Positions 46,676 to 62,397 of a stretch of DNA of 64,000 bases are shown in pieces. A model generated the notes under the pieces. It had not been told where the DNA came from, did no database searches, and worked only from the letters and a program-made list of their open reading frames with translations. The stretch comes from an uncultured Thermococci archaeon (GTDB lineage Archaea; Methanobacteriota_B; Thermococci; Thermococcales; Thermococcaceae). Numbering within the stretch: position 1 is the stretch's first letter; each line of letters opens with the position of its first letter. Made by a program: the position numbers and the translations under genes. Location of the stretch: assembly GCA_964615185.1 (NCBI GenBank), contig CAZTOS010000003.1:1-64000 (forward strand), given 5' to 3'.

Positions 46676-49600
46676 TCACTTCAAAATATACTGTCTGATC
46701 TCTGCATACATATTGTTAAGTACCTCTTGATAGTCTGCCTTGTTTTCCTCTACCAAGTCCATGAGCTCTTCAAGTTGTCTTGTTCTTTCCTCACTGACAA
46801 GCTCCTTATATTTGCTTATGAGATAGTGATAAACTTTGGTTCCAAGTTCCGTTGGAACTAACTTCTTCCTTCCTTTTGTTTCAATAACATAGTGTCTATC
46901 TAACAATGTCTTGACGATTTTTGCATATGTGGAAGGTCTTCCAATTTTGCGCTCTTTCATAAGAGCAATTAAATCACCCTGGGTGTAGAGGGAAACTTTC
47001 GGTGCTCTCCATTTCTTAACCTCAACGACTTTGAGTCTCTGTCCTTTCTCAAGCTTTGGCAGCTGCCTTAATGGCGGTGCCCTTAACTTAGTCCAACCAT
47101 CAAAGATCACTTTAATATATCCTTCAATCTCAGTCTTGGCAACTTTTGCATCAATCACCGCTTTTTCATAGAGAACTTTTGCAGCTTTCATCTGTGATGC
47201 CATGAAGCGCCTGAATATCATATCATAAAGCCTGAAGTGATCTCTTGTGAGTCCCCTTGCGAGGGTAATGACACCATCTCTCAGCAGTTGCATCAATCTT
47301 CCGGTGTCAATTGGTCTTGTGGGTCTTATACACTCGTGTGCTCCCTCTTCACCCCACTTTCTTGGAGCGAAATATTCTTCTCCAATTTCTTCGCTAATGT
47401 ATTCCTTTGCAACTTCAATACCCGTGTTGCTGACGTGAGTTGAATCAGTTCTGTGATATGTACAGTTATGTGATAGCATTCCATTCGCAAAGAAGTTCTC
47501 TGTGCTTGTTGTGAAGTCATAGAGGTAGCCACTGTATTCTTCATCTGAAATCCCAGCAACCTCTACCCATGTAACATTCGACTCGACTAAACTTTTGAGA
47601 TACTCTTTTTCTGGAGATTCTTCAGCATAATCAAGGACAACTTTAAGTTTCTCTCTTGGTATACCATTGCTATTTTCCTTGAGCCAGTTCCAGATGTCAA
47701 TTTTATGTCTCCTTAGAATCTCAGCCTTAGCACCTTTTGGGAATCTAAGTTTTTTGAATATGCTCCCAACTGGGAGAATATCACCATGTCCCTCCTTTCT
47801 GAATTTTCTGTATGTTTGATATGCTTGTTCAAACTGACTTTTGCGTATCCTTAAGAAGGCTGCAATTTCTTCTCTGAATTTTTCCAGATGTCTATTGCTG
47901 ACCGTTAGAGTAGCTACGCCAGTCCTTTTATCATCTCTTATATAAACAGGTATCCCAATTGAGTACATGTAAATGCCGATTTTCTCAAGAACATCTCTTC
48001 TTTTCGATGTCAGCAGAGCTCTAAAGTTAGGGCCTCTTTTGTCATTTAAGAGGGAGAAGCAACCATCAGTATCAAAATATCCAGCAATCATGGCATTTAT
48101 CTGCTTCTTTGGAAGGGAAAATACGATTGGATGAAGCTCTCCGCTTCTTGCTCCTAAACGTTTACAGAGCTCGGCAAGCAGTGAGTTAGAGAACACTGCC
48201 TGGGATTTTGTTAGAAAAACATGTACTGGAAGGGTTTCTTCAATTATTTCCTTTACCTGCTTGAGTGGGGTTTGAGACACCGCAATTTTGCTTTCTTTTA
48301 TGCTTCCATCACCTAAAATCAAGCCAAAGAGATACCAGAACTTCTCGTCGAGCTTTATGTTAGGTATCTTCTTTGCTCCAGCACGCTGTTTGTAAAGTCC
48401 AACTACATGATTTTCTGCTGCTTTAATGTCAACTCCCCACTTAATCAGCAGTTTCAGAGGAACGGCACGATTTCTTAAATACTTATACTTCGTACTCGTC
48501 TTGATGTTCTTCTTTATGAGCGGTGCTATTATGTCGTCAAAAGCTTCATCAAACTGAATCATCACATCAGTTATGCCAAGCTCAATCAAGAGCTCAAGCA
48601 GTGTGAACTCTCTGCCTTCCTCTCCACGAATGTCATAGGAGAAGGCAACGTAATCACCGGGCATGATGTTCTTTGCGGACACCCATCCAATCCTGCCATC
48701 CCTCATTACAAATAATCCATGATCTGGAGTTGCCTTTATTTTGTAGCCATTCTTCAGTTTTATGACTCTAATCTCGTCGTTCCACTTAACCCTCCAGAGG
48801 TCAGTAACTTCAGCATTCTTTGCTTTGAATCCGTTCACTCCAGCAAGTTCCTTCACTTTGCTCTTCACAGCATCTTCAATTCTCATTATCTGACCATCTG
48901 CAAGAGTTACAAGGGTATCTGGTGTTATACACAGACCCAGCTCAAACAGGTCTTGAGCAAGCTGCATCGTGTAAGTCGCCGAGAACCCTAAAAACCTTGA
49001 GGCATCTTGGAGCATCGTATCTGTGGTATATGGTGGGAATGGATTGATTTCCTTCTCCTCGATTTGGACATCTTCAATAGTTACTTCCCCAACTTCCTCC
49101 TTGACACCTTCAAGGGTTACGCTTAAGCCGTTCTCCAAAGTTAATGCCATGAAGTCTGTCTCGCTCTCGACGAATTCCTTGTATCTCTGTATCACCCATC
49201 CAAGAACGGGTGTTTGAACTCTACCAGCTGATAAGTTTCTGCTCTCAAAGACCTCCCAGAGCTTTTGGCTGAGCTCGAATCCAATCCATCTGTCCTCTAT
49301 TCTTCTCACCAGCTGGGCATTAACTCTGAACTCATTAACGTCTCTCGCTTTATTCAAGGCTTTCAATATGGCTGGTCTTGTAACCTCGTGGAACTCAATG
49401 CGCTTGATGTTTGGAGTGTAGGGACTTAGAACATTCCTGATATCCCATGCAATCTTTTCCCCCTCGACATCTGGGTCAGTTCCTATGAGAATTTCATCAA
49501 CTTCTTGAGCTATTTCACGCATTGCAATTACATTCTCAAGAGCATTCCTAACATTCCTTGAGCCGCATCTCGGGCAGACCCCCTTCTCCTCCCAGTCAAC

Positions 49601-51793
49601 GAACTGATGACCGCAGTCCCTACAGCGCTTAATCGTGTCATAGACTGGTATGAAGTGGAACTTTCCATCTCCCTCCTCTATGAGGACGCCGTGATAACCT
49701 TCCGTTGTAACGAGGTCGAACATATGCCCACCGCTTGCTAAAATCGTCAGCATCCTGTCGCCTATGCTGACTTCATATGCCACCAAGTCGCCAATCCTTC
49801 TCTTGCTTGGCTGTCCAAAGAAGTTGGCTATTGTTCTGGCTTTGTTTGGAGATTCAACTATCATGAGGGCAGACTTAACTAAGTCCTTGGTCTTCTCACT
49901 TATCTTTCCGGCAAGAATCAGCCTGACTTTCTCCCTATCGGCATTGATCTCCTTAAGAAGCTCCTCAAGGTTAAGCTCTTCAAACGGCTTCATTTCAAAC
50001 TCAGCAAAGCGCCACCTCATCTGTCTCTTCAAACCGTTGAAGACCTTTTCGTTGTCAACTATTATTACGCTCAGTCCCTTTGTAATTCCACCAGCGAAGA
50101 GACGTGAAGTTCTTCCGCTTGCCTGGATGTAAGTCCTAACATCTGGAATCTCAATGTACCATTTTCCTTCCTCTTCTTTGAGGCTGACGAATGGGTCTTC
50201 TTCTATGCGCTTGAGCACTTCCTCCTTCTTCAGAACTCTCCTCAAGAACTCAACAGCTTGTCTAAAGACCTCCAAAACATGGCTGTGGAATCCTTCCAAA
50301 GGCAAGCCTTCCGCCAATGCCTCTTCAATCTTCATCAATTCAAACTGGGGAATGTTTCTAATCAAACGCCTTAAGCGAGCATATAATCTTTCACCTTCTC
50401 TCCTGTCTTCTTCATCAAGGAACTCCATGACTTCACTCATCAGTCCTAAAACTCTGTAAATTGTGGGTTGCTCCAAATCAAGGCTGAATCTAAATTTCGG
50501 CACACCTGTAAAGATTGCATATCTAATCAAGTGCGGCAAGTCAAGTCCTCTAACTATGGTTCCATAATAGGTCGCAACACCAACCAAATAGTCAATTTCT
50601 TCATTTTCAAATTTCTCCAAGCCTTTCTTGTTTCTTGCAGAGACAAGCTCAACCTTAAGGCCTTTCTCTTGGAGGTATTGTGTAAGCCTCTCAGCATAAC
50701 CGATTCCCTGATCAATTGGGACAAAAATTAATCCGCCTTTACCGAGCTTTGTCAAAATCTCTTCAACATGTTCCTCAATTGGCTTCTCTGGGAAGAGATA
50801 GCTGTCAACAACATTTCTCAACGCCGACCTTCCGCTTCCCACCTCGAAATCCAAAAGCTCACGGTAGAGCTTTATCCTATCCCCTCTTGCTCTTCCAGTT
50901 GCTGAAGCTACAATTAATACTCCAATCTTATTCTCACGCTTGAATTTTCTTATTTCTCTCTCAAGCTTGTTAATCTGCTTGTTGAGTTCATTGAGCTGCT
51001 CTTGCTTGTCTGGGCTGTTGCCATTGAGGAATTTTGCCATCTGCTTCTTCAACCTTATGATCTCCCAAGCCTTCTGGATTATCTCCTCTGTAAAGCCGAG
51101 CAGAATAAGGGAGCGGTCAATGTTCTTTGAGGCTTTCAAAAATGCATCAACATCATCAACAAAAATGAAGTCAAACCTCTTATCCTTGAGCATCTCATCG
51201 AAGTTTCTCGCAAGCCATTGGGCTGAAGTTATGAGAATATCAAAATCCCCGTTCATGATCTTTTCAATCATTTCCTCCTTTTCCTTCTTCTTCATGCCAC
51301 CGTGGTAATAGGCAAGGTTGATTTCAACGCCAGCTCTTTCTGCAAATGTCTTTACCCTCTTAATTGTCTGCACCACAAGCGGTGTTGTTGGTAAGACTAT
51401 ATAGCTCTTCTTTTTCTTTTTAGCATAATACAACGCCATGAATGATCCAAAAACGCTCTTACCCATACCTGTTGGGGCTATGATGGAAAAGCTCTTGTTT
51501 TTAATTAGTCTCTTTACCCAGGTTTTTTGGGCACTCCAGAAGTTGAAACCTGTGGCTTTCTCAAAGAGCTCCTCAATCTCCCTCAACCTTTTCTCAAGCT
51601 TGTAAATTTCATCCCAGTGCTTTAGTGTTCCACGTAGTTTGAGAGCTTCTCTAACGCCCGTTATTAAATCAAAGTAAATTTCAGCCTGAATTTCTTCATC
51701 AAGGCAAACATCACACGGATGCTTCTTATACAAGCGTTCATCACTAATTCTATCCTCACAATTTGGGCACATTTCTCTATAAATCGCTTTCAT
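46676..51793 (-). CDS. rgy: Reverse gyrase, intein-containing
   Basis: N-terminal Zn finger, [41 protein letters not shown] and GRPSTY motifs. Confidence 0.97.
47465..48931 (-). mobile_element. Intein (489 codons) with LAGLIDADG homing endonuclease, inside reverse gyrase
   Basis: Junctions [10 protein letters not shown] and [17 protein letters not shown] block B; GLILGDG and [17 protein letters not shown] blocks. Confidence 0.95.
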
Positions 51794-51870
51794 TTTCTCA
51801 CCCTCTAATGTTCTATTTAGGTGATGCAAAGTTTATAAGGGTTTTTTAGATTCCCATTGTGGGTGAGATA

Positions 51871-52251
51871 ATGATAATTGAGAGAATTAAGCTTAAGGCT
51901 GAGCTCACCGAAGAGCAGTATGAGAAGGCAATAAAACTCATAGAAAGGCTAAAATCACGATTTCCAAGCGCTCTTGTGAAAAAGTTCAAAACACAAGAAA
52001 AGATAAGCTTTATTGATGTGGATTTAGGCGTAAGATTGAATTTTGATGTAATAATTGGAAATCGTGGTAAGCCCTTTATAGCTGTAGAGATGGAAGGAAA
52101 CAAATCAAAATATGCCTTTCAGATAATGAAATTCTTCCTTGATGAGATTAACGTTGAGTATTCCTTCGATTTTGACGGAAAAGAAATTTATGACACGTTG
52201 AAAAGAAATATCAAGGCAAAGAGCTTGCTGGACTATTTGGATACAGGGTAA
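51871..52251 (+). CDS. Hypothetical protein, possibly a degenerate PD-(D/E)xK fold
   Basis: GGTGA RBS and an FDVII...IAVEME pattern. Confidence 0.65.
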   Translation: MIIERIKLKAELTEEQYEKAIKLIERLKSRFPSALVKKFKTQEKISFIDVDLGVRLNFDVIIGNRGKPFIAVEMEGNKSKYAFQIMKFFLDEINVEYSFDFDGKEIYDTLKRNIKAKSLLDYLDTG

Positions 52252-52255
52252 AAAG

Positions 52256-53539
52256 CTACATTTCAAGTAGCCACTTCCAGAGAGGAACAAGCTTAATATC
52301 TTTCCCATTGAACTTGAGGGAGTGTTCATAATCCCATGTTATGAGGAGTAAATTACTCCAGCCAAATCTTTTGGAAGCTGAGATAAGTGCTTTGATTTCC
52401 CGTTCCATGGTTTCTGGATTACTAACATCATAACTCACTTGGATTAACAGTTCTTTTTCAGGTATTACAAAGTCAATTTCCCAGTTGCTTTCTTTTGCAT
52501 AACTTGGAGTGTATCCCCTTCTCATTAACTCCACGAAAACTGCGTTTTCCATAAGTCTTCCTATATTGTCGCTGAATTTGACACTCAAGAAAGTTAAAAA
52601 CGATGTATCAACAAAGTATATCTTTTTAGGATACTGTATTCTGAGCTTCACCTTTGGGGCATAAATCTCAACTGGAAAGGCAAAGTAGCATTCAGTAAGG
52701 TAACGGAGATAGTTTGAGAGAGTAGCCTTGCTTATTGAATAGCCCATACTCTTCATAATTTTCTCAAGCTTGCTGAGGCTGAAATACTCCGAGTTAAGAA
52801 GCAGACGGATAAATGTTCTGAGCTCTTCGGAATTTCTAACATTATATCGCTCAACCACATCAAGTGATATTATTGTATTGAAGTATTCTCTTACAAGCAT
52901 GCGCTTTATTCTCACGTCATTTACAAGAACAACCTCTGGAAATCCACCATAGAGTAGATATTCTCTCAAAAGGTTTAAAAGTTCAAATTTTTTATCACTG
53001 AATTCAATGTTCTCTGGTATGTTAAATCCCTTAAATTTCAAAAACTCCCTAAAACTGAGTGGAAAAACTTCAAATGTTAAAGCCCTTCCTCTCAAGCTCG
53101 TTGGTATTTCTTTGCTTGAAAGTTTTGAAGAAGAACCGCTTAAGAAGAGCTTGATATCTCTTCGTGAGTCATTGATTCGTCTAACCCATAAATCCCAGCG
53201 TTCTATGTTTTGAATCTCATCAAGAAAGAGATAAAAGGAGCTTTTTTTTCCAAATAGCTCCTCAATTGTCGGTATCAGCTCCGTTAATGTCTCGATTCTC
53301 TTTTCGAGTCTTTCGTCTTCAAAATTAATGTAAAATATTTCCTCCCTTGGAATTTTTTTTGAAAGCTCGTTTATCAGCTGAAACATTAAGTACGTTTTTC
53401 CCACTCTCCGGCATCCCGCAAATGTTATCACTTTGTTGATATTTTGGAGGATAAGTGATGTATCAAACTCTCTTTTTATTAGAGGAGGAGTCCAGCTCTC
53501 TTGCCATTCTATCAACACCTTGGCTATTTCGGGTCTCAT
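52256..53539 (-). CDS. AAA+ ATPase with DUF4143 / C-terminal nuclease-like domain (COG1373)
   Basis: GCRRVGKT, LDEIQ, SGSS, GGFPE, KIYFVD, ENAV and EIDF motifs. Probably a leaderless ATG at 53539. Confidence 0.9.
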   Translation of the reverse strand: MRPEIAKVLIEWQESWTPPLIKREFDTSLILQNINKVITFAGCRRVGKTYLMFQLINELSKKIPREEIFYINFEDERLEKRIETLTELIPTIEELFGKKSSFYLFLDEIQNIERWDLWVRRINDSRRDIKLFLSGSSSKLSSKEIPTSLRGRALTFEVFPLSFREFLKFKGFNIPENIEFSDKKFELLNLLREYLLYGGFPEVVLVNDVRIKRMLVREYFNTIISLDVVERYNVRNSEELRTFIRLLLNSEYFSLSKLEKIMKSMGYSISKATLSNYLRYLTECYFAFPVEIYAPKVKLRIQYPKKIYFVDTSFLTFLSVKFSDNIGRLMENAVFVELMRRGYTPSYAKESNWEIDFVIPEKELLIQVSYDVSNPETMEREIKALISASKRFGWSNLLLITWDYEHSLKFNGKDIKLVPLWKWLLEM

Positions 53540-53571
53540 GCCATAAGCTACATATTTATCCTTTATAAAGT

Positions 53572-53624
53572 TGTTTATCAAGCTAAACAAACAAATATAA
53601 ATATAATGTTTAGTATATCAAACA
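53572..53624. promoter_or_regulatory. Two TGTTT-N8-AAACA palindromes upstream of the COG1373 promoter
   Basis: TGTTTatcaagctAAACA (53572-53589) and TGTTTagtatatcAAACA (53607-53624), next to TTTATAAA (~53562-53569). Confidence 0.45.
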
Positions 53625-53660
53625 ATTCAAACAATAGTAAGCACCTGTCAGATAGAAGAT

Positions 53661-54188
53661 TCATAGAGAGCATTTAAATTTCTCAAGCTCTCTCTCAATT
53701 TCCTCCGTGAGCCCATAATCATAGAAAACTTTCTTAAATTCTTCAAACTGTATGAGCAGAGATTCGTAAAATTCTTTAGAAAACTCCATCTTTAGCAGAG
53801 CAAAAGCTTTCCTGAATAGCCTCGCAACTTCGCTTCCACTTTCATCGTGATTTATATAGTAAGTAAGCTCTTTTAAAATAATAGACCTTCCAATCTCAGG
53901 ATTTTCAAAAATAATCTCATCCACAACAGCTTGAGGCGAAACTTCTGCCAAGGGATTTGGCGTCTTAAAATATCTCCCGTTCTCAAAAGCCTCCAATACA
54001 GCAAATACATGCTTGCAGTCTTTCCCAATAGGACAAGTGCATCTGTTTTTTCCACTTTTTATGCTGACCTCAACGTAATAGGGATAAGTACCTAACACTT
54101 TTCCATAAAGTCTATCTCCATATTTCAGCACCCACAGAACCTTGCCCTTTTTGAAATACTGCTTTCCCTTCTTTTTCGCATTGTCCAT
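53661..54188 (-). CDS. SWIM zinc-finger protein
   Basis: CTCPIGKDCKH. Confidence 0.88.
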   Translation of the reverse strand: MDNAKKKGKQYFKKGKVLWVLKYGDRLYGKVLGTYPYYVEVSIKSGKNRCTCPIGKDCKHVFAVLEAFENGRYFKTPNPLAEVSPQAVVDEIIFENPEIGRSIILKELTYYINHDESGSEVARLFRKAFALLKMEFSKEFYESLLIQFEEFKKVFYDYGLTEEIERELEKFKCSL

Positions 54189-54301
54189 TTTAACCACTAA
54201 AGTTAGTAACGATGAGGACTTTTAAAGATTTCGCTCTGCGATACCATTAAATGGAGAAACCTATAAATTCACAAGAACATACCTAATATTGAGGTGGTAG
54301 C

Positions 54302-54535
54302 ATGGACGTTTTTGAGCTTGCGCGGAGGTATCATCAAGAGATTGGGATAAAAGAGCCAAGCTTTGCAACCCTGGCTGCAGAAATCTTTGGAGAGCTTGGT
54401 CTCAAGATATACGAGCATTTAAAGGAGGAGGGTTACACCCTCAAAAGCACTCGTTTTATTGACTACGACAAGAGCCTTGTATTGGAGGTAGTAAAAGAAG
54501 AAAAGGCCTTCGAGATTCTTCTCAGAAAGGCTTAA
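54302..54535 (+). CDS. Small hypothetical protein
   Basis: GAGGTG RBS and host-like codon use. Confidence 0.75.
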   Translation: MDVFELARRYHQEIGIKEPSFATLAAEIFGELGLKIYEHLKEEGYTLKSTRFIDYDKSLVLEVVKEEKAFEILLRKA

Positions 54536-55839
54536 ACTCTATAGTCGAACACTATTTCCTTCTTTTCTCTTGGCTTTACAGTTACTTTGAACTCCACATA
54601 ATGTACTGTTTCATTTATTGGTTCTACAGTAGAGCTCAATATTTTGCCACTCCACTTGTAATGTCTGACAATAACTTCCTTCGTCTCGTTTCCAAAGTTC
54701 TCAATTGTAATCCTCACTTTGTAGTACGTTGAGTCGTTTTCTCTTCTCTGTTCAAGGATTTCTGTTTTGCCTTTTAAATCTACATCTCTTCCAAGCTTGA
54801 GCCTCAATATATCGCCTTTAGCGGTGTGATCAATTTTCTGCTCGCCAATTAAAACTGTTGTATCGTTCATTTCTTTGTAAATCTCTACAATGCCAGCTGG
54901 AAGCACTTTCTCAGTCTTAAATGATACAATTTCGTAAATTTCATTACTTCTACCGTGGGGATAACTCTCGTATAGATACTCCCTTTCAAAAGATGTCTCT
55001 TGGGTAATGTAAGGTATCATCTTCTTTTCAAAGGGGTTTACACTGAGCATTCCAAGGTTGTAAAGGTAGAATGCTTCAATTTTTTGAGGCTGCTCTGGAA
55101 CTCCAACAACTGCTTTTTCTACTGTCGCATAAACCCTTTCCATAACGACTTGTGGGGGAGCATAGAAGTTTACTTCTCCAGAAACGAGCATGACTTTAAA
55201 GTCTTCAAATGTCTTGTTCGTAGGATTATCAATCACTATATATCCAAAGAGCAGGGCTTTGTTGGTTAGGTAAAGCTTATACCTTGAGCTCCAGCCAATC
55301 GACTGAACTCTGTAAATCAGCTTGAACTTATACTTTCCATCTTCCTCAGCCCGTATAATGGCATAAGTTTGGGCTTTGGCTTTGCTTCCAAGTTCAGCGA
55401 GCTTCATATATGCAACTTCCTCAGGCTCAATCAGATAGTAAGAATCTCCCTGAACTGCTATCTTACCGTCTTTGTAGCCTAAAAATTTTCCCGTTATCCT
55501 CTCGCCACTTTTCAGCTTTATTGTGACTGTTTTTCCAATGTTTGCTTCAAACACACCTCTGCTTGGGTATGCCTGCGAAATAATTCCCAAGACCGTAACT
55601 TTATCGCTTAAAGGCTTTAGTGTAACTTCCTCAATATTTAAACCTTCAATCTCTTCAAGAGGAACTTCGTTGAATCCCTTTTTGAGGTCTAAGATAATTG
55701 TTTCCTCAACAACCCCAATGCGTGCAGAGTCGTAAAGCACCAAAGTCCCACTCTCATCTGCAGCCCTTGTTTGATGTAACACTATCATTGCCAAGAGCAA
55801 AAAGAGTGCAAAAATTCCAGCTAAAATTTTCTTCCTCAT
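54532..55839 (-). CDS. DUF4139 domain secreted protein
   Basis: Signal peptide, W...Y, LPAG.V.IY and IGE..I.HT patterns. Confidence 0.8.
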   Translation of the reverse strand: MRKKILAGIFALFLLLAMIVLHQTRAADESGTLVLYDSARIGVVEETIILDLKKGFNEVPLEEIEGLNIEEVTLKPLSDKVTVLGIISQAYPSRGVFEANIGKTVTIKLKSGERITGKFLGYKDGKIAVQGDSYYLIEPEEVAYMKLAELGSKAKAQTYAIIRAEEDGKYKFKLIYRVQSIGWSSRYKLYLTNKALLFGYIVIDNPTNKTFEDFKVMLVSGEVNFYAPPQVVMERVYATVEKAVVGVPEQPQKIEAFYLYNLGMLSVNPFEKKMIPYITQETSFEREYLYESYPHGRSNEIYEIVSFKTEKVLPAGIVEIYKEMNDTTVLIGEQKIDHTAKGDILRLKLGRDVDLKGKTEILEQRRENDSTYYKVRITIENFGNETKEVIVRHYKWSGKILSSTVEPINETVHYVEFKVTVKPREKKEIVFDYRV

Positions 55840-56046
55840 TATTCATCACCAAAAAATAGTTGGCTTTCATACTATTTATAGAGACCGACAGCTTCAAGCT
55901 GAGTTGAAGTATTATTGTGTTCGTGTGTTCTTTTGTTCTCTTCAGTTTTTGATTACTATTTATAATGGTGTGTAAAATCCGTAGAACAAAAGTTATAAAT
56001 AAAAGGTGCATTTCTCTATATCGTGACTACTTATAGGGGTGATGTT

Positions 56047-59000
56047 ATGAGGAGGGCATTGAGTATCATGTTAATGGCCTTGATATTGGGGTTGAGCTTT
56101 AGTGCTGCAGTAAGTCAAAGCTTTGTGCTGGCAGAAACCCAGGAGGATGAGGTTTATGAGGACTTCTGGAATATTCTAAACAAGGAAGCTGAATTAATTG
56201 TTAAGCTCAACTCAACCATTAATGCTAATAAGACTCAAAGCTTGGCACTACAATTGATCCAGAATTCTCGGAATGGTTCCTCCAACGCAGCTCAAATTTC
56301 TGCATTAATCTGGCAGAGTTTAGAGGAATTAAAGAATTCTGGAGTTAAGACTTATTATACAGCAGAAGAATTAAGACAAATGGCTCAGAACATTAGTGAG
56401 AACGGATTACCTGATGAGACGGTACAACTCTTAAAACAACAAGGCTGGAGTGATGAAGAGATACAAGCATTGCAAGAGTACATTGCTCAAAACGCTGAAA
56501 ACATTACCGAAGACTTCAACCTCACGGCATTTCTGGAAAACTTCTCCACAGCCTTCGTACAAGTAGCATTCAAATACAACCACTACGAAGCATGGGCAAT
56601 AGAAAAATGGAAGTGGAGAAATCCGGTGAATGGGAGTACTCCTCAAGGAGAAGAGATGATAAATCCACTTTTAACCGATGAGTGGATAAATTTCTACAAA
56701 GCTTACTATAACAGAACACTTGAAGAACAACTAACCTCACTGAACAAACTCCAAAGTAAAGTGTACTCATTAATAACGGGTTCTTTGGCTGGCAAAAAGG
56801 AGAGTTTGATTCTTCCTCCAAAGCCTATACATCAGCCTGTAGGGGAAAGCACTACATCAATTCTTCTCCCCATTAGAATACCGCAAGTAAAGAACATTAA
56901 GCATTTAACCGGCAATGCATTAGAGTTCGAAACTTGGGAACTTGTTAAAGTGGACAGCAAAGAGTGCACCTCCGAATATAATGTCACTAAATACTACTGG
57001 AAGTCTCCTCTTGAGGCCTATCAATTAATTAGAGAAATTCACTCCCTGCTTTTGGCAAAGCAGTTTGGAAACAAGGACATTGAACTAAACTGGCAGTTAA
57101 ATGAGAAAATTAGTGAATTAAAAGAGGCTTTGGTAGTTACAAAAGGTGAAAGCGTTATTAAGAGGATTAAGAATAAGTGCGAACCAATAATACTTCCCCC
57201 ACAACCACCAAGAGATCCAAAAATGAATCCCAACACCAAGAATCCCGGTGATACAGAACAAACAAATCAACACCAAATGATGCAGATAGACGAGTTAGCA
57301 TTGAGGGCTTTAGATGTTGGTGATGAGACTAAACTGCATGTTAGTGGGGAGATTATTGTTCACTCGGTTACACCCTCAGAGGTTAAATACAAGGTAAAGG
57401 TTACTGTAAAGGCTGAAAATGCACAAGCAACTAACATTATCATTTACATTGACGGGAAAAAGGAATATGGTTCATTTGATTTGGGAGCTGGGGAGAGTAA
57501 AACAGTAACCTTACCTGTTGGGAAATATTTCAGGGAGGATGCTCCTACTAATGCTCAAGAGGTAACGCTCAGCAAGACCATAAAGGTTACATACACCAAA
57601 TGGTGCAGTGGCATTAACAGTGCTCCCGGTAGGGAGGAAGTTTTAAGCACTCCAGCGGGCTGTGGTGGAACTGCGGAGGTTGTAAAAACTGTAACTAAAA
57701 CGATTGAACTCTTCGATGTTAAAGTTTCCGTTTCAGATACTACAGTGAAAGTTAATGAGCCAGTAGAGTTAACTTTCACGATAACCAATTACATGACGAG
57801 TGATAAAACGTTCAACTTGCTGGTAACTGCTGGAGGGGAATCTGAAGAGGGTACACTCACAGTTCCAGCTGGTGAAACTAAAACCAAGACTCTACAGTTA
57901 ACTTTCAGTACACCAGGTGAAAGAACATACTACGCGAAGGTTGATGGGACAACATATGCAGTGGGGACGATAAAGGTGGAAGATGATGACAGCAGTCCAC
58001 CAATTGGCAGTACTTTGAAGATTACTGGGTTTTATTATAGTCCGGAGGGTCCTGTTGAGGGTGATAATGTGACGTTTGGTGTTAGGGTGTATAATTCAAT
58101 TAGCAGTGGGATTACTGCAATGTTAAAGCTGATGGTTAGAGATAAGAATTCTGGGGAGGTAGTGTATTCTGAGGAAAAGTCAATAAGCCCAGACTATCTT
58201 GATGATTCAGAGTACACGTTCACTTGGAGCAATGTCAAGGCTGGAGATTATACAGCAGAAGCAAAAGTACTATATAACGGAGAAGTAAAAGACAGTGAAA
58301 CGAGGGATTTAACAATTGGAGAAAAAGTTTTTGAGGGCTCTTTATTTGCAACTCCATCAGAGCTAGAAAGTAATGGAACAGTACTATTTGACGTCTTTGT
58401 AAAGAAGGTCTCTGAGGGTATTGAGAGCACTTTGGTAGAGGTAGTTGATAAAGATGGTGTGCCAGTTTACACTTTCATAACAAAACTCTCTAAAGATGAT
58501 GTATTCCACGAGCAATTTACACTAGATCTACATGCTTCTGGCAATTATACATTCACTCTGAAAGTAAATGGACGTCCCCTCGATTCTGCTAAAGTTTCTG
58601 TGATAGACAACGTTCCAAAAGACATAGTTGCAGAAATGGAGTGTCATGGGGACACTTATTCCTCAACAATACGATTGGGAAGTTATGTTAGTTGTATAAT
58701 ACATATAGAAGGCAAAAACATTCAAGAATATCAAGAAGTCAAATTGGAAGAAGTAATTTTTGGAACTAAGGTTATATGGGGTTCTTACGGGCAAATAAAT
58801 GCGCCTACACTAACAGTTGATCCACAACCACCAGTAGTAGGAATAACTCCAGCAGACACTAAAGAGGACATAGAAATCAAATTTACACTAAATGACGAAT
58901 TTGCAATGTATTATTTTGATAGCTCATGGGACTTCTCGTATAAATTAGCTGGTCATTCATATTACATACAAGCTAGACTTACACCCTCAATTACAGTGGC

Positions 59001-59235
59001 AGACTTAATAGAGATTATAGAAACAACAGATTCGGGAAGCATAGATTCAAAAATAGAAAAAGCAAAAAAAGCAAAAGAATTCCTTGATACAGTCAAATCT
59101 ACCATAGAAGCTCCCAAAAATGCTATCTGGATTGCAATTGAGAAGTTAGTTAAAATTGGAAAAGAGATATGGTGGTTGTGGAAATATTCAAGGGACTTTG
59201 TAGAAACTGATAAAAACAACGTTATAGGGGGGTAA
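56047..59235 (+). CDS. Large secreted protein: helical N-terminal domain, Pro linkers, several Ig/CARDB-like domains, amphipathic C-terminal tip
   Basis: GGGGTGA RBS, signal peptide, beta-sandwich repeats (VKVNEPVELTFTITN; EGDNVTFGVRVYN), ends KNNVIGG*, no TM anchor. Confidence 0.85.
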   Translation: MRRALSIMLMALILGLSFSAAVSQSFVLAETQEDEVYEDFWNILNKEAELIVKLNSTINANKTQSLALQLIQNSRNGSSNAAQISALIWQSLEELKNSGVKTYYTAEELRQMAQNISENGLPDETVQLLKQQGWSDEEIQALQEYIAQNAENITEDFNLTAFLENFSTAFVQVAFKYNHYEAWAIEKWKWRNPVNGSTPQGEEMINPLLTDEWINFYKAYYNRTLEEQLTSLNKLQSKVYSLITGSLAGKKESLILPPKPIHQPVGESTTSILLPIRIPQVKNIKHLTGNALEFETWELVKVDSKECTSEYNVTKYYWKSPLEAYQLIREIHSLLLAKQFGNKDIELNWQLNEKISELKEALVVTKGESVIKRIKNKCEPIILPPQPPRDPKMNPNTKNPGDTEQTNQHQMMQIDELALRALDVGDETKLHVSGEIIVHSVTPSEVKYKVKVTVKAENAQATNIIIYIDGKKEYGSFDLGAGESKTVTLPVGKYFREDAPTNAQEVTLSKTIKVTYTKWCSGINSAPGREEVLSTPAGCGGTAEVVKTVTKTIELFDVKVSVSDTTVKVNEPVELTFTITNYMTSDKTFNLLVTAGGESEEGTLTVPAGETKTKTLQLTFSTPGERTYYAKVDGTTYAVGTIKVEDDDSSPPIGSTLKITGFYYSPEGPVEGDNVTFGVRVYNSISSGITAMLKLMVRDKNSGEVVYSEEKSISPDYLDDSEYTFTWSNVKAGDYTAEAKVLYNGEVKDSETRDLTIGEKVFEGSLFATPSELESNGTVLFDVFVKKVSEGIESTLVEVVDKDGVPVYTFITKLSKDDVFHEQFTLDLHASGNYTFTLKVNGRPLDSAKVSVIDNVPKDIVAEMECHGDTYSSTIRLGSYVSCIIHIEGKNIQEYQEVKLEEVIFGTKVIWGSYGQINAPTLTVDPQPPVVGITPADTKEDIEIKFTLNDEFAMYYFDSSWDFSYKLAGHSYYIQARLTPSITVADLIEIIETTDSGSIDSKIEKAKKAKEFLDTVKSTIEAPKNAIWIAIEKLVKIGKEIWWLWKYSRDFVETDKNNVIGG

Positions 59236-59241
59236 AGGGTA

Positions 59242-59706
59242 ATGTATGGGGAGTTTTCCTTTTTGATATTTTTTGCAATCTCTCTATTTTATGTTGTTAT
59301 TCTAATAATTACATGGGTACTTCAGAGTATGATGGGGGATTATGAAGGTAGCGCTACTTTAATGATACTAGCTCCGTGGTTTTCTTTACTATATGCATTC
59401 AGTAATGTTTCAGCAGCTCAAGGAAAAGGAACTGCATCAGTACTTGCTTCTATTCTTGCAATTTACTTAATTTATAGAGTTGTAAGGAGCATTTTAGGCG
59501 TCGATTACCTAAGACAGAAATGGAAACATATTCACATTCCAGCACTCATAGTTTTAGTGATGATTTTCCTAGCAGGAATAAAAGAAATTCTTGTCTGGAT
59601 AGTGGCAGTGTTTACATTCATTCTTTATTGGAAGTCCTTGAGGATGCTTCAGCAGGCTATTAGAGAAATTGAAGCATTGGAGAGAAAGCAAAAACAGTAT
59701 AGTTAG
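59242..59706 (+). CDS. Small polytopic membrane protein (candidate immunity / cognate partner 1)
   Basis: 154 aa, about 5 TM; starts 6 nt after the large gene. Confidence 0.8.
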   Translation: MYGEFSFLIFFAISLFYVVILIITWVLQSMMGDYEGSATLMILAPWFSLLYAFSNVSAAQGKGTASVLASILAIYLIYRVVRSILGVDYLRQKWKHIHIPALIVLVMIFLAGIKEILVWIVAVFTFILYWKSLRMLQQAIREIEALERKQKQYS

Positions 59707-60628
59707 TGGTGATGTGTCAGTGGGTGTTAAGGCGAGGTTCACTCTTACTGTCAGGAATGATGAGAACGCCCCAAGGTACTCTATTCCGGTTAGGGTGTAT
59801 TATGTTTACACTTCGCCGGATGGAGTGTGGCATAGTGTTATTAAGGTCAAGGAGGCTGAGGTTGACTTTGATCCTCTTGGAGAATACCAAGACTGGTTTG
59901 ACTTCACCTTCGCAAATCCAGGCACTTACAAGTTTTACCTCGTAGTTAACGGTCAAGAAGAGGATGAAAAAGTGATAAGGGTGAATTCACAGGGAAGTAT
60001 TAGTGCGGTAATGACTTGCAATCCAGAATTCGTTACAGAGGATGTAAATTCAGTGTCCTGTCGTGTTGATGTAGATAACTTGGGAGAGACCACAGAAGAC
60101 ATTTGGATTACTAACATTTACTTTGCCGGTGGCGAGATTTACGATAAGAGCAGTGCTGATAATTTGGTGACTCCGAGTCCGAGCAGTTTAACTTTAAACT
60201 CGTACTCTACGGGAGTGTTCACTTTCACAATTCCAATTAATGATGAATTACAGAAGAGGGTTCCAGTAGACTTAAGCGACATAAATCCAGGAACACCAAT
60301 AGCAGTGAAAACTTACTTAAACACCCTCCAAGAACCAATAATGTTCGTGGTACAAATGAACCCAAGGAATCTTGGAGGGGATATTCACATTTCTTCTAAG
60401 GATGTAATTTCAGTGGCAGTTGGAGTTGGAAAAGCAGTTTGGAGCGCAGTAAAAGAAAATCCAAAATCTGTAATGACAGTAGTATCCTCAATTGGAGAAT
60501 TTGCTTACACCGCTGGAATTTCATGGATTATCCAAACTTGGGTTGAGCTCTACTGGAGGGGCTTAATGGAGCCAGTACCTCCTGATAACTCGGGAGATAA
60601 CAACTTAATTGTGGGGGATGAGTCATGA
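59707..60628 (+). other. Headless (orphan) cassette: Ig domain + C..VSC domain + alternative amphipathic tip
   Basis: Open frame without signal peptide or convincing start, homologous to the last ~300 aa of the 56047 protein, ending GDNNLIVGDES*. Confidence 0.7.
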
Positions 60629-61161
60629 ATTTTGGGGAAATTCCTGCCTTTCTTTTAGTTTTTATTCCTGTGTTGGTGCTTGTTTTTGTGTTAGTGTATT
60701 TTGCTACATTTAGCACCCTTGAGCAGAAGCGGCTTGAGTATCTGCTGAATCTTTACTTGGGCTTGCCGTATGTTCTCTTATTCTGGAGTACAATAATGGC
60801 AGAAACAAAAAGTAGCGTATTGGGCTGGCTTATAATCTTTGGATTCCTAATACTAGCCAAGGCATTAAGACCTCCTCATTTGGTCGATGGGTTGACCCTT
60901 GGGGCGTTAATATACCTATCATTTTCATCAAGAATTGCCTTGGTGAGTGTTGCGTTTTATCTGATTGTACAGCTTACAAGTAAGTGGAAAGGTAGTATAA
61001 TGACCTACCTCCTCTTATTTTGGAGTGGAATGCTACTGACATTTACAGAGTCACCTTTCCAAACATTGGCAATTTTAGCCTTTGGCACAATTCATGTCCT
61101 CGGTGCATTAAAACTTTTGAAAACAACAAATCAACAAATGATGCAGGGGATGATAACCTAA
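60625..61161 (+). CDS. Small polytopic membrane protein (candidate immunity / cognate partner 2)
   Basis: 178 aa, about 6-7 TM; ATGA overlap with the cassette stop. Confidence 0.8.
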   Translation: MNFGEIPAFLLVFIPVLVLVFVLVYFATFSTLEQKRLEYLLNLYLGLPYVLLFWSTIMAETKSSVLGWLIIFGFLILAKALRPPHLVDGLTLGALIYLSFSSRIALVSVAFYLIVQLTSKWKGSIMTYLLLFWSGMLLTFTESPFQTLAILAFGTIHVLGALKLLKTTNQQMMQGMIT

Positions 61162-61177
61162 TAGTAGGGGATGAAGG

Positions 61178-61648
61178 ATGATGAGATTACTCCTAAGAAA
61201 AAATCTCCAATCCTATCTTTTTGCTATCTTTGTTTATTTTATCCTCTGAATTCATCTGACGACTATTAGCTCCGACAGATGATATCAGGAGGGGTTCCTT
61301 TCGGGAAGGTGGAGCTTAGTCCTCCTGTGGCTTTGGGGAGTTGTCCATGTCGTTGCCATCCTGAACAGAAAATTAAAGCGGTTGGCGATATTTACAATTA
61401 GATATCTCCCCTTAATCTCTGTCGTTGTTTATATGATCCAGTGCGGCAACTGTCCTTCGATTGTCTATGGAGGGAGTATCTTGGCCTCATGGATTTTCAC
61501 TATCAAAGTCAAACATCAACAGACGAAGAGAAATACACATAGCATTGATGATGAGGTTTCCGTGAAGGGACAAAATGGGGAGTGGTTAGGGACGTTAACT
61601 AGATGGTGGTTCCAGTGTCTCTTAACCCAGCAATGGAAAGACTTTTAA
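61178..61648 (+). pseudogene. Third membrane-partner gene, interrupted by two in-frame TGA codons
   Basis: ATG 61178 overlaps the stop of a GDDNLIVGDEG* remnant. The frame MMRLLLRKNLQSYLFAIFVYFIL*IHLTTISSDR*YQEGFLSGRWSLVLLWLWG... continues in frame into ORF 61382..61648. Confidence 0.7.
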
Positions 61649-61698
61649 CACTGTAAACATAGTTGAAACTGCAGTCATGATAATTAGAGGTGGTAAGG

Positions 61699-62397
61699 AT
61701 GGATAGGGTTGCAAAAGCAAGAGAAATTATCGAAAAAGCCAAGGCTGAGGGTAGAGCTCTTGTAGAACCAGAGGCTAAGGAGATTCTTAAGCTCTACGGC
61801 ATTCCAACCCCAGATTTTAAGGTTGCAAGGAATGAGGAGGAAGCCGTTAAGTTTGCAAGGGAAATTGGCTATCCGGTTGTCATGAAGATTGTCTCACCAC
61901 ACATTATACACAAGAGCGACGCTGGTGGTGTTAAGATCAACATCAAAAACGATGATGAGGCAAGAGAAGCCTTCAGAACAATTATGGAAAATGCAAAGAG
62001 ATACAAGCCAGATGCAGACCTTTGGGGTGTCATAGTCTATAAGATGCTCCCACTCGGAAAGGAAGTTATCGTTGGTATGATTAGAGATCCACAGTTTGGT
62101 CCAGCTGTCATGTTTGGTCTCGGTGGTATCTTCGTTGAGATCCTCAAGGATGTCAGCTTTAGAGTTGCCCCGATAACAAAGGAAGAAGCCCTTGAAATGA
62201 TTAAGGAAATCAAGGCTTACCCAATCCTTGCTGGTGCAAGAGGAGAAAAAGCAGCAAACATTGGGGCTTTGGCAGACATAATCGTCAAAGTTGGCGAATT
62301 GGCTCTCGAGCTCCCAGAGGTTAAAGAGCTTGACATCAACCCAATCTTTGCTTATGAAGATGAAGCAGTCGCAGTTGATGCAAGGATGCTACTTTGA
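61699..62397 (+). CDS. acdB: Acetate--CoA ligase (ADP-forming) beta subunit, ATP-grasp
   Basis: GYPVVMKIVSP, HKSDAGGV, DPQFGP and ELDINP motifs. Confidence 0.92.
   Translation: MDRVAKAREIIEKAKAEGRALVEPEAKEILKLYGIPTPDFKVARNEEEAVKFAREIGYPVVMKIVSPHIIHKSDAGGVKINIKNDDEAREAFRTIMENAKRYKPDADLWGVIVYKMLPLGKEVIVGMIRDPQFGPAVMFGLGGIFVEILKDVSFRVAPITKEEALEMIKEIKAYPILAGARGEKAANIGALADIIVKVGELALELPEVKELDINPIFAYEDEAVAVDARMLL

Follow-up and report, generated by a model that had tools for sequence, protein, structure and literature searches.

A VARTIG locus of the Thermococcales with exchangeable cassettes of a carrier tip and a membrane partner

The window analysed here is a stretch of 64,000 nucleotides (nt) from contig CAZTOS010000003.1 of an uncultured Thermococci archaeon (Thermococcaceae; assembly GCA_964615185.1). 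Its right part contains a gene array that, by its sequence, is a VARTIG module (arCOG07710), i.e. a new copy of an already described kind, known from deep-sea hyperthermophiles. A single expressed-type carrier gene heads the co-directed array. The last ~700 nt of the carrier, encoding a cysteine-bearing immunoglobulin (Ig) domain and a helical tip of 60-90 amino acids (aa), constitute together with the next membrane gene one moving cassette. Exchange takes place at short conserved linkers, and the DNA involved comes mostly from other strains; displaced cassettes decay downstream and partner genes accumulate.

VARTIG was named in 2021 by Makarova et al., who had already raised the same toxin and self/non-self hypotheses and listed it also under arCOG14200 (PMC8416519). 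The original prediction did not recognise the locus as belonging to a characterised family; as far as description is concerned this does not stand, since the module has been in print since 2021 (PMC8416519). A literature search for later work on VARTIG returned only an editorial mention and no published function. The lack of a toxin domain and the unmapped breakpoints were named by the authors as the main gaps (PMC8416519).

The carrier of the window shares 32% identity over 1034 residues with the type protein PAP_07455 (= P0019; E-value (E) 9e-128), and its N-terminus is nearly identical to WP_056934707, an arCOG07710 entry in the PMC8416519 supplement. The published hallmarks recur at the locus. 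A large arCOG07710 protein leads the array, its N-terminal region contains the GN motif (G341-N342; at least 90% conserved in 34 carriers), and several Ig/CARDB domains are present (the CARDB match of the carrier reaches 25.9 bits, with a cut-off of 22.7, and the model of a downstream headless gene, the orphan, comprises two Ig-type beta-sandwiches). Two conserved cysteines lie in the distal Ig domain, the C-terminus is hypervariable, and short Ig genes and membrane genes follow downstream in one array. The C-terminal motif D[ND]NxxxG[GD], not found in all VARTIG members, is exact in the orphan and in a downstream stub, while the carrier has one mismatch (DKNNVIGG). VARTIG is patchy within, and confined to, the Thermococcales, and all named matches were from Thermococcus, Palaeococcus, Pyrococcus or Thermococcaceae. 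A large-scale protein search over 1.84 billion representatives matched no more than 39 clusters, all without names, of which 37 reached E 1e-10 or better. The locus differs in no way in kind from the published modules, but carries new alleles. The arrangement typical of polymorphic toxins (constant trunk, variable C-terminus, orphan C-terminus/partner cassettes) was also found. The features of the locus are as follows:

55910..61632, no strand assigned: the whole VARTIG island, 5,723 bp, replacing 6 bp of the empty allele.
55986..56043, + strand: archaeal BRE/TATA-like promoter (BRE, B recognition element) and ribosome-binding site (TATA at 55993; ribosome-binding site at 56036).
56047..59235, + strand: arCOG07710-type carrier, 1062 aa (open reading frame (ORF); homology to PAP_07455).
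56140..57189, + strand: conserved, mostly helical N-domain with the GN motif at 57067 (alignment; AlphaFold2).
57979..58006, + strand: recombination breakpoint in the inter-Ig linker (homology ends).
58642..58695, + strand: cysteine pair of the distal Ig domain, C866 and C883 (alignment).
59095..59235, + strand: distal carrier tip with its end motif (headless remnant in loci L032 and L033).
59242..59706, + strand: membrane gene A, 154 aa, a putative immunity gene that pairs with the carrier tip as its cognate partner (recurs after the same tip remnant).
59708..60628, + strand: orphan cassette with two Ig domains, a three-helix tip (from about 60356) and the end motif DNNLIVGD at 60596.
60625..61161, + strand: membrane gene B, 178 aa, which has its start within the end of the orphan frame, overlapping the stop, and pairs with the orphan tip as its cognate partner.
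61149..61181, + strand: end-motif stub NDAGDDNLIVGDEG of a lost third tip (sequence).
61178..61292, + strand: decayed fragment of another cassette, not a membrane-gene start (matches pieces of L031 and L032).
61295..61516, + strand: 3' third of a different partner membrane gene, without a start (homology).

Of the 99 genomes that represent the order, 56 gave a match to the carrier. The data set of 41 loci consists of the window and of 40 regions taken, by score and contig size, from 37 of the 55 further genomes with a match. An iterated profile detected 120 tips in these loci, assigned to 46 classes after removal of the end motif. A membrane gene lies directly behind 99 of the 120 tips, and 88 of these 99 genes start no more than 20 nt from the tip stop. 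Among 189 cross-locus pairs of tips that belong to one class, the membrane genes directly behind them also shared a class in 96 (shuffling gave a mean of 4.6 and a maximum of 13), whereas the upstream membrane gene agreed in class in 0 of 56 pairs and the second downstream gene in 14 of 166. This asymmetry identifies the cassette as the tip plus the next gene. The predicted design of a constant trunk with variable tips that co-vary with the downstream membrane gene is supported.

Both pairs of the window recur elsewhere. A homologue of gene A (91% identical) stands behind the same carrier-tip remnant in genome G098. Gene B has matches in 10 of the 99 genomes: in G096, G042 and G061 it directly follows a tip of the orphan's class or what is left of one, in G098 and G072 it follows an end-motif stub only, in G010, G013 and G015 the nearest related tip lies 270-900 nt away, and in G055 the contig ends. 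The ESM Atlas returned for gene B only clusters without names (0.92). Genes A and B are hydrophobic, with four predicted helices each, and do not align with each other (E 3.2), as had been anticipated. Separately, locus L085 (G066:C7:738-1209) contains a gene A-like chimera, with 30% identity over residues 5-109 and 97% over the last 35, and in metagenome run X4 a replacement similar to this chimera ends at 59594.

Partner genes outlast their tips. Homologues of cognate partners account for 79 of the 100 membrane ORFs that do not stand behind an intact tip; locus L067 (G044:C29:161200-180000) has 17 membrane genes for 3 tips, and 14 of these genes are of classes cognate elsewhere. Carriers are broken in 10 of the 41 loci, with the partners persisting. 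A ribosome-binding-site-like word plus start precedes 38 of 59 orphans versus 79 of 99 partners, a count made without a random control. Small clusters of tip-less partner-like membrane genes were also seen in the fetched stretches L110 (G074) and L119 (G003), away from the carriers of those genomes.

The carrier, gene A, the orphan frame, gene B and a third stub ending at 61181 are present at their expected positions, but the nature of two predicted elements had to be revised. The orphan had been regarded as a headless copy of the C-terminus of the window carrier. By sequence comparison it is indeed a true headless carrier C-terminus, because its entire length shows 64-67% identity to the ~300 C-terminal aa of the full-length carriers P0035 and P0011, in which a different tip is set between the orphan-like Ig domain and the orphan-like tail. 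It is not, however, a copy of the window carrier: the two are distant relatives (best piece 26% over 69 aa, E 0.003), and no DNA repeat was found between them. The orphan model consists of two beta-sandwich domains with Ig-type matches and three low-confidence helices. A possible GTG start is located at 59720, 7 nt past GGTGA, from which the orphan may be translated without a signal peptide. The region behind gene B, predicted as a single broken membrane gene, turned out to be a mosaic of two unrelated fragments, and the single-gene interpretation was rejected: 61178-61292 is a piece of a decayed cassette, and 61295-61516 the last third of another partner gene, matching L032 6086-6682 at 48% and L053 5925-6692 at 42% (oriented coordinates).

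Makarova et al. could not map breakpoints and saw no within-locus recombination (PMC8416519), whereas both breakpoints and within-locus repeats were found here. The window itself is mosaic: homology breaks off sharply at about 57999, 59095, 59993, 60587 and 61139. Identity to three related carriers stops at 57995-57999, and the next 295 bp correspond at 89% to a downstream cassette of L032. From 59095 on the carrier shows 89-92% DNA identity to the L032/L033 remnant (this allele is replaced in run X4), and the orphan breakpoint at 59993 is common to L032 and L033. Metagenome contigs contain alleles that part from the window at these positions, with loose ends at 58001 (run X2) and at 59095; in addition, 59100-59593 is replaced and a joint spans 60376-60571. 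This allele comparison (likeness 90) covers contigs only, which possibly come from related species.

At the level of the family, 24 of 39 carrier tips recur as downstream cassettes in other loci, and internal repeats occur in 28 of 41 loci. Among the repeats that start in a carrier, 23 of 46 end within -60 to +45 nt of the first cysteine. Of the 53 cross-locus matches of at least 80% that span a tip, 32 begin no more than 120 nt upstream of that cysteine. A crossover box precedes the cysteine-bearing Ig domain; within it, identical residues use the same codon at a frequency of 0.69 (0.83 within loci), versus 0.42 in the N-domain, and conservation at synonymous sites is as expected of a homologous crossover site. 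Fifteen tip classes lie behind this box. It is absent from both the carrier and the orphan of the window, which also lack a common DNA repeat, and new tips at this locus must therefore come from outside. Recombination of the window orphan onto the window carrier within this genome appears unlikely, because there is no DNA homology between them. Cassette swapping as such is supported, as proposed.

The insertion site is a new one with a known empty allele, which distinguishes this locus from those published. In five of seven same-genus genomes the flanks adjoin with 6 bp between them, and this joint is also present in contigs of metagenome runs X2 and X4. Genome G096 shares the right part of the island. 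At the same site G095 carries a 1,710-bp insert (C7 about 96538-98247; L089, L098) composed of a carrier-type promoter and partner genes only; the two tips of the G095 genome are of classes other than those cognate to these partner genes. No integrase or target duplication was evident at the island. A paralogous VARTIG locus in the same genome was rejected, as only self matches were obtained (assembly 95.6% complete). The segment 55986..56043, which we take to be of the BRE/TATA type, shares homology with the 5' ends both of other carriers and of the G095 insert. Scans for bacterial promoters and terminators gave chance levels.

The island is flanked on the left by a gene for a 435-aa protein that is uncharacterised and matches no Pfam family (54532-55839, - strand) and on the right by a gene for an ATP-grasp_5 protein (61690-62397, + strand). 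Further to the left, 51859-54197 has a lower GC content (about 35-38%) and contains genes for an AAA_14/DUF4143 ATPase and a SWIM-finger protein. A 1717-aa ORF at 46676-51829 (- strand) presumably encodes, judging by its motifs, a reverse gyrase with an intein.

The carrier is composed of a signal peptide (recognised by eye), the helical N-domain, a proline-rich linker, an Ig/CARDB stalk, the cysteine-bearing Ig domain and the variable tip. It has 13 N-glycosylation sequons, none of them within the last 229 aa. The cysteines of both Ig proteins (C866/C883 in the carrier, C104/C118 in the orphan) are at least 90% conserved in 97 aligned C-termini. The AlphaFold2 model of the N-domain is mainly helical (predicted local distance difference test score (pLDDT) 89.8). 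Fold searches with it gave no Foldseek match at E 0.001 and a best VIA Z of 7.6, which is not proof of a new fold, and the ESM Atlas returned no usable match. The invariant serines S74 and S85 are modelled within a single long helix, and the GN motif as a helix cap; these residues look structural rather than catalytic.

Tips are more Gly/Ala-rich and more hydrophobic or amphipathic than trunk segments. Membrane-spanning hydropathy was found for 11 of 38 tip class representatives versus 0 of 175 trunk 60-mers, and glycine-zipper patterns for 17 of 38 versus 15 of 175. Pfam Gly-zipper_Omp matched 5 of 97 C-termini (best E 3.5e-5), and a few members gave weak bacteriocin matches. The two window tips are amphipathic, as predicted (moments 0.52 and 0.46), and not membrane-spanning (maximum 19-residue hydropathy 0.85 and 1.18). 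Co-folding of the orphan tip with gene B, for which controls are absent, gave a score of 0.00 and weighs neither way.

The end motif occurs on 45 of 120 tips and on 9 of 31 intact carriers. Its D-N-N codons vary at background rates, which indicates that it is kept at the protein level. A role as a DNA recombination site was rejected on this ground, and one as a universal sortase signal because of its restricted occurrence. The G-G part overlaps the ribosome-binding site of the partner gene. In the orphan model the last 10 residues have a pLDDT of 76, compared with about 52 for the tip; like a latch, the motif may bend back onto the Ig domain.

We consider it modestly probable that VARTIG is a contact-range, membrane-damaging polymorphic toxin with cognate membrane immunity, used against other Thermococcales, because tips and partners are coupled one to one, their classes are many and unrelated, tip-less partners are hoarded, carriers are found broken, and the tips appear membrane-seeking. 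The carrier would be exported via Sec and displayed on its Ig stalk; the tip would insert into the membrane of a neighbour and cause depolarisation. Neutralisation would come from the cognate membrane protein, whose translation would be coupled to that of the tip gene. Tip-less partner genes would provide immunity to foreign tips, and, less surely, the targets might be mainly cells displaying a carrier of their own. The complete scheme, comprising archaeal contact-dependent depolarising helical tips with cognate membrane immunity, reloading through DNA boxes, action mainly against carrier-displaying cells and an N-domain serving as a display/delivery fold, is tentative, and we would sooner expect some part of it to fail.

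Several results weigh against a toxin. No delivery or release mechanism was identified, and the toxic and protective roles of tip and partner are putative. The lack of DNA homology between the orphan and the carrier of this genome counts against it as well. The co-variation pairs are not independent of one another, and linkage and shared ancestry also yield co-variation. No enzymatic toxin family was detected in the 97 C-termini by a Pfam scan, and both window tips lack a Pfam zipper match and membrane-spanning hydropathy. The ratio of non-synonymous to synonymous substitution rates (0.30 for partners, 0.30 for orphan membrane genes and 0.19 for orphan tips) fails to separate living from dead cassettes and places the tips under purifying, not diversifying, selection. 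Finally, an N-domain profile matched 49 of 80 near-complete genomes (0 of 14 in one genus), and the 31 genomes without a carrier contain no match to gene A, gene B or partner class 1; partner class 2 is found among them only in G039, as a stand-alone gene at a housekeeping site. For the four partner classes tested, of about 40, no broad immunity-only genomes were seen. This absence fits kin recognition, or a toxin that reaches only carrier-displaying cells.

A stand-alone homologue of class 2 (35-47%) was observed at one fixed housekeeping site in L122-L128 (G039, G017, G056, G055, G065, G052 and G060), between what we take to be aminotransferase and thioredoxin reductase genes. It could be a partner that became domesticated, or the gene from which the class arose.

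The same co-variation evidence is explained equally well by non-lethal kin recognition, in which tip and partner would act as ligand and receptor that gate aggregation or DNA exchange, and extra partners would widen the range of accepted strains. Confinement of partner genes to carrier-bearing genomes suits this explanation, as do the resemblance of the stalk fold to adhesins such as RbmA and the allele-specific binding of IdsD and IdsE through membrane subdomains (PMC4471559). We nevertheless hold it to be rather unlikely: a stock of many foreign partners would blur identity, partners persist beside broken carriers, and the promoter-led partner-only insert of G095 is better suited to protection. 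Still less probable, in our judgement, is a variable surface adhesin, with the tip as a membrane anchor, the partner as the producer's anchor or assembly factor, and variation serving to evade viruses or tune adhesion. Hydrophobic C-termini, tight coupling of tip and partner genes and the C-terminal helix predicted in 8 published members (PMC8416519) would suit an anchor, but there is no need for an anchor to exist in 46 sequence classes, 27 of 38 tip classes fall below membrane-spanning hydropathy, and an assembly factor without a client is useless, yet 79 tip-less partner genes are kept.

Makarova et al. also raised complement-like, sortase-anchored and self-cleaving serine protease options (PMC8416519), which together would make the carrier an innate immunity protein with a protease N-domain. 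The Ig domains do match alpha-2-macroglobulin and complement C5 chains by fold, and retention of the end motif at the protein level is consistent with anchoring. However, these fold matches are generic for Ig (template modelling score 0.2-0.3), most tips and intact carriers lack the motif, whose G-G part has the overlap noted above, the modelled positions of S74, S85 and GN would weaken the protease idea, and cognate partners are left unexplained; we regard this option as very improbable.

Precedents for the toxin interpretation are found among ionophore and glycine-zipper proteins. Ionophore toxins of contact-dependent inhibition (CDI) have cognate-specific polymorphic immunity, and CdiA-CT/CdiI shares with VARTIG a long surface stalk, a two-part variable C-terminus (folded domain plus helical tip) and a cognate polymorphic partner (PMC11630599). 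VARTIG differs in being archaeal, with putative Sec-type export and a putative toxin role, and the window carrier lacks CdiB, haemagglutinin repeats and VENN by Pfam scan. Trunk domains of CDI, Rhs and MafB systems (haemagglutinin, VENN, YD-repeat, MafB) were not found in the carrier with Pfam and NCBIfam to E 1. In Caulobacter, the glycine-zipper proteins CdzC/D are paired with the transmembrane CdzI (PMC5380434); Gly/Ala-rich hydrophobic helices with small membrane partners are shared by part of the VARTIG family. IdsD/IdsE of Proteus mirabilis is likewise an adjacent allele-matched pair whose membrane segments would carry specificity, but IdsD is a type VI secretion substrate, whereas binding between VARTIG tip and partner is putative (PMC4471559). 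Some VARTIG tips can also be likened to TelE and EsxX, which are reportedly glycine-zipper antibacterial proteins of the type VII secretion system. In contrast to these and to CdzC/D, VARTIG lacks type I and type VII secretion parts, and the zipper occurs on a minority of its tips and, by Pfam, on neither window tip. Acquired interbacterial defence arrays are reported to consist of orphan immunity genes without toxins (bioRxiv 10.1101/471110), like L067 and the G095 insert; VARTIG partner runs, however, occur only in carrier-bearing genomes, and no recombinase was seen beside them.

What this analysis adds to VARTIG are defined cognate tip/partner pairs, crossover boxes and near-isogenic contrasts with an empty site or a partner-only insert. 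With them, the three published VARTIG hypotheses become accessible to an inexpensive test of cross-protection in organisms amenable to genetics. Should the tips prove toxic, hyperthermophilic archaea would have in VARTIG a polymorphic toxin family that acts on membranes.

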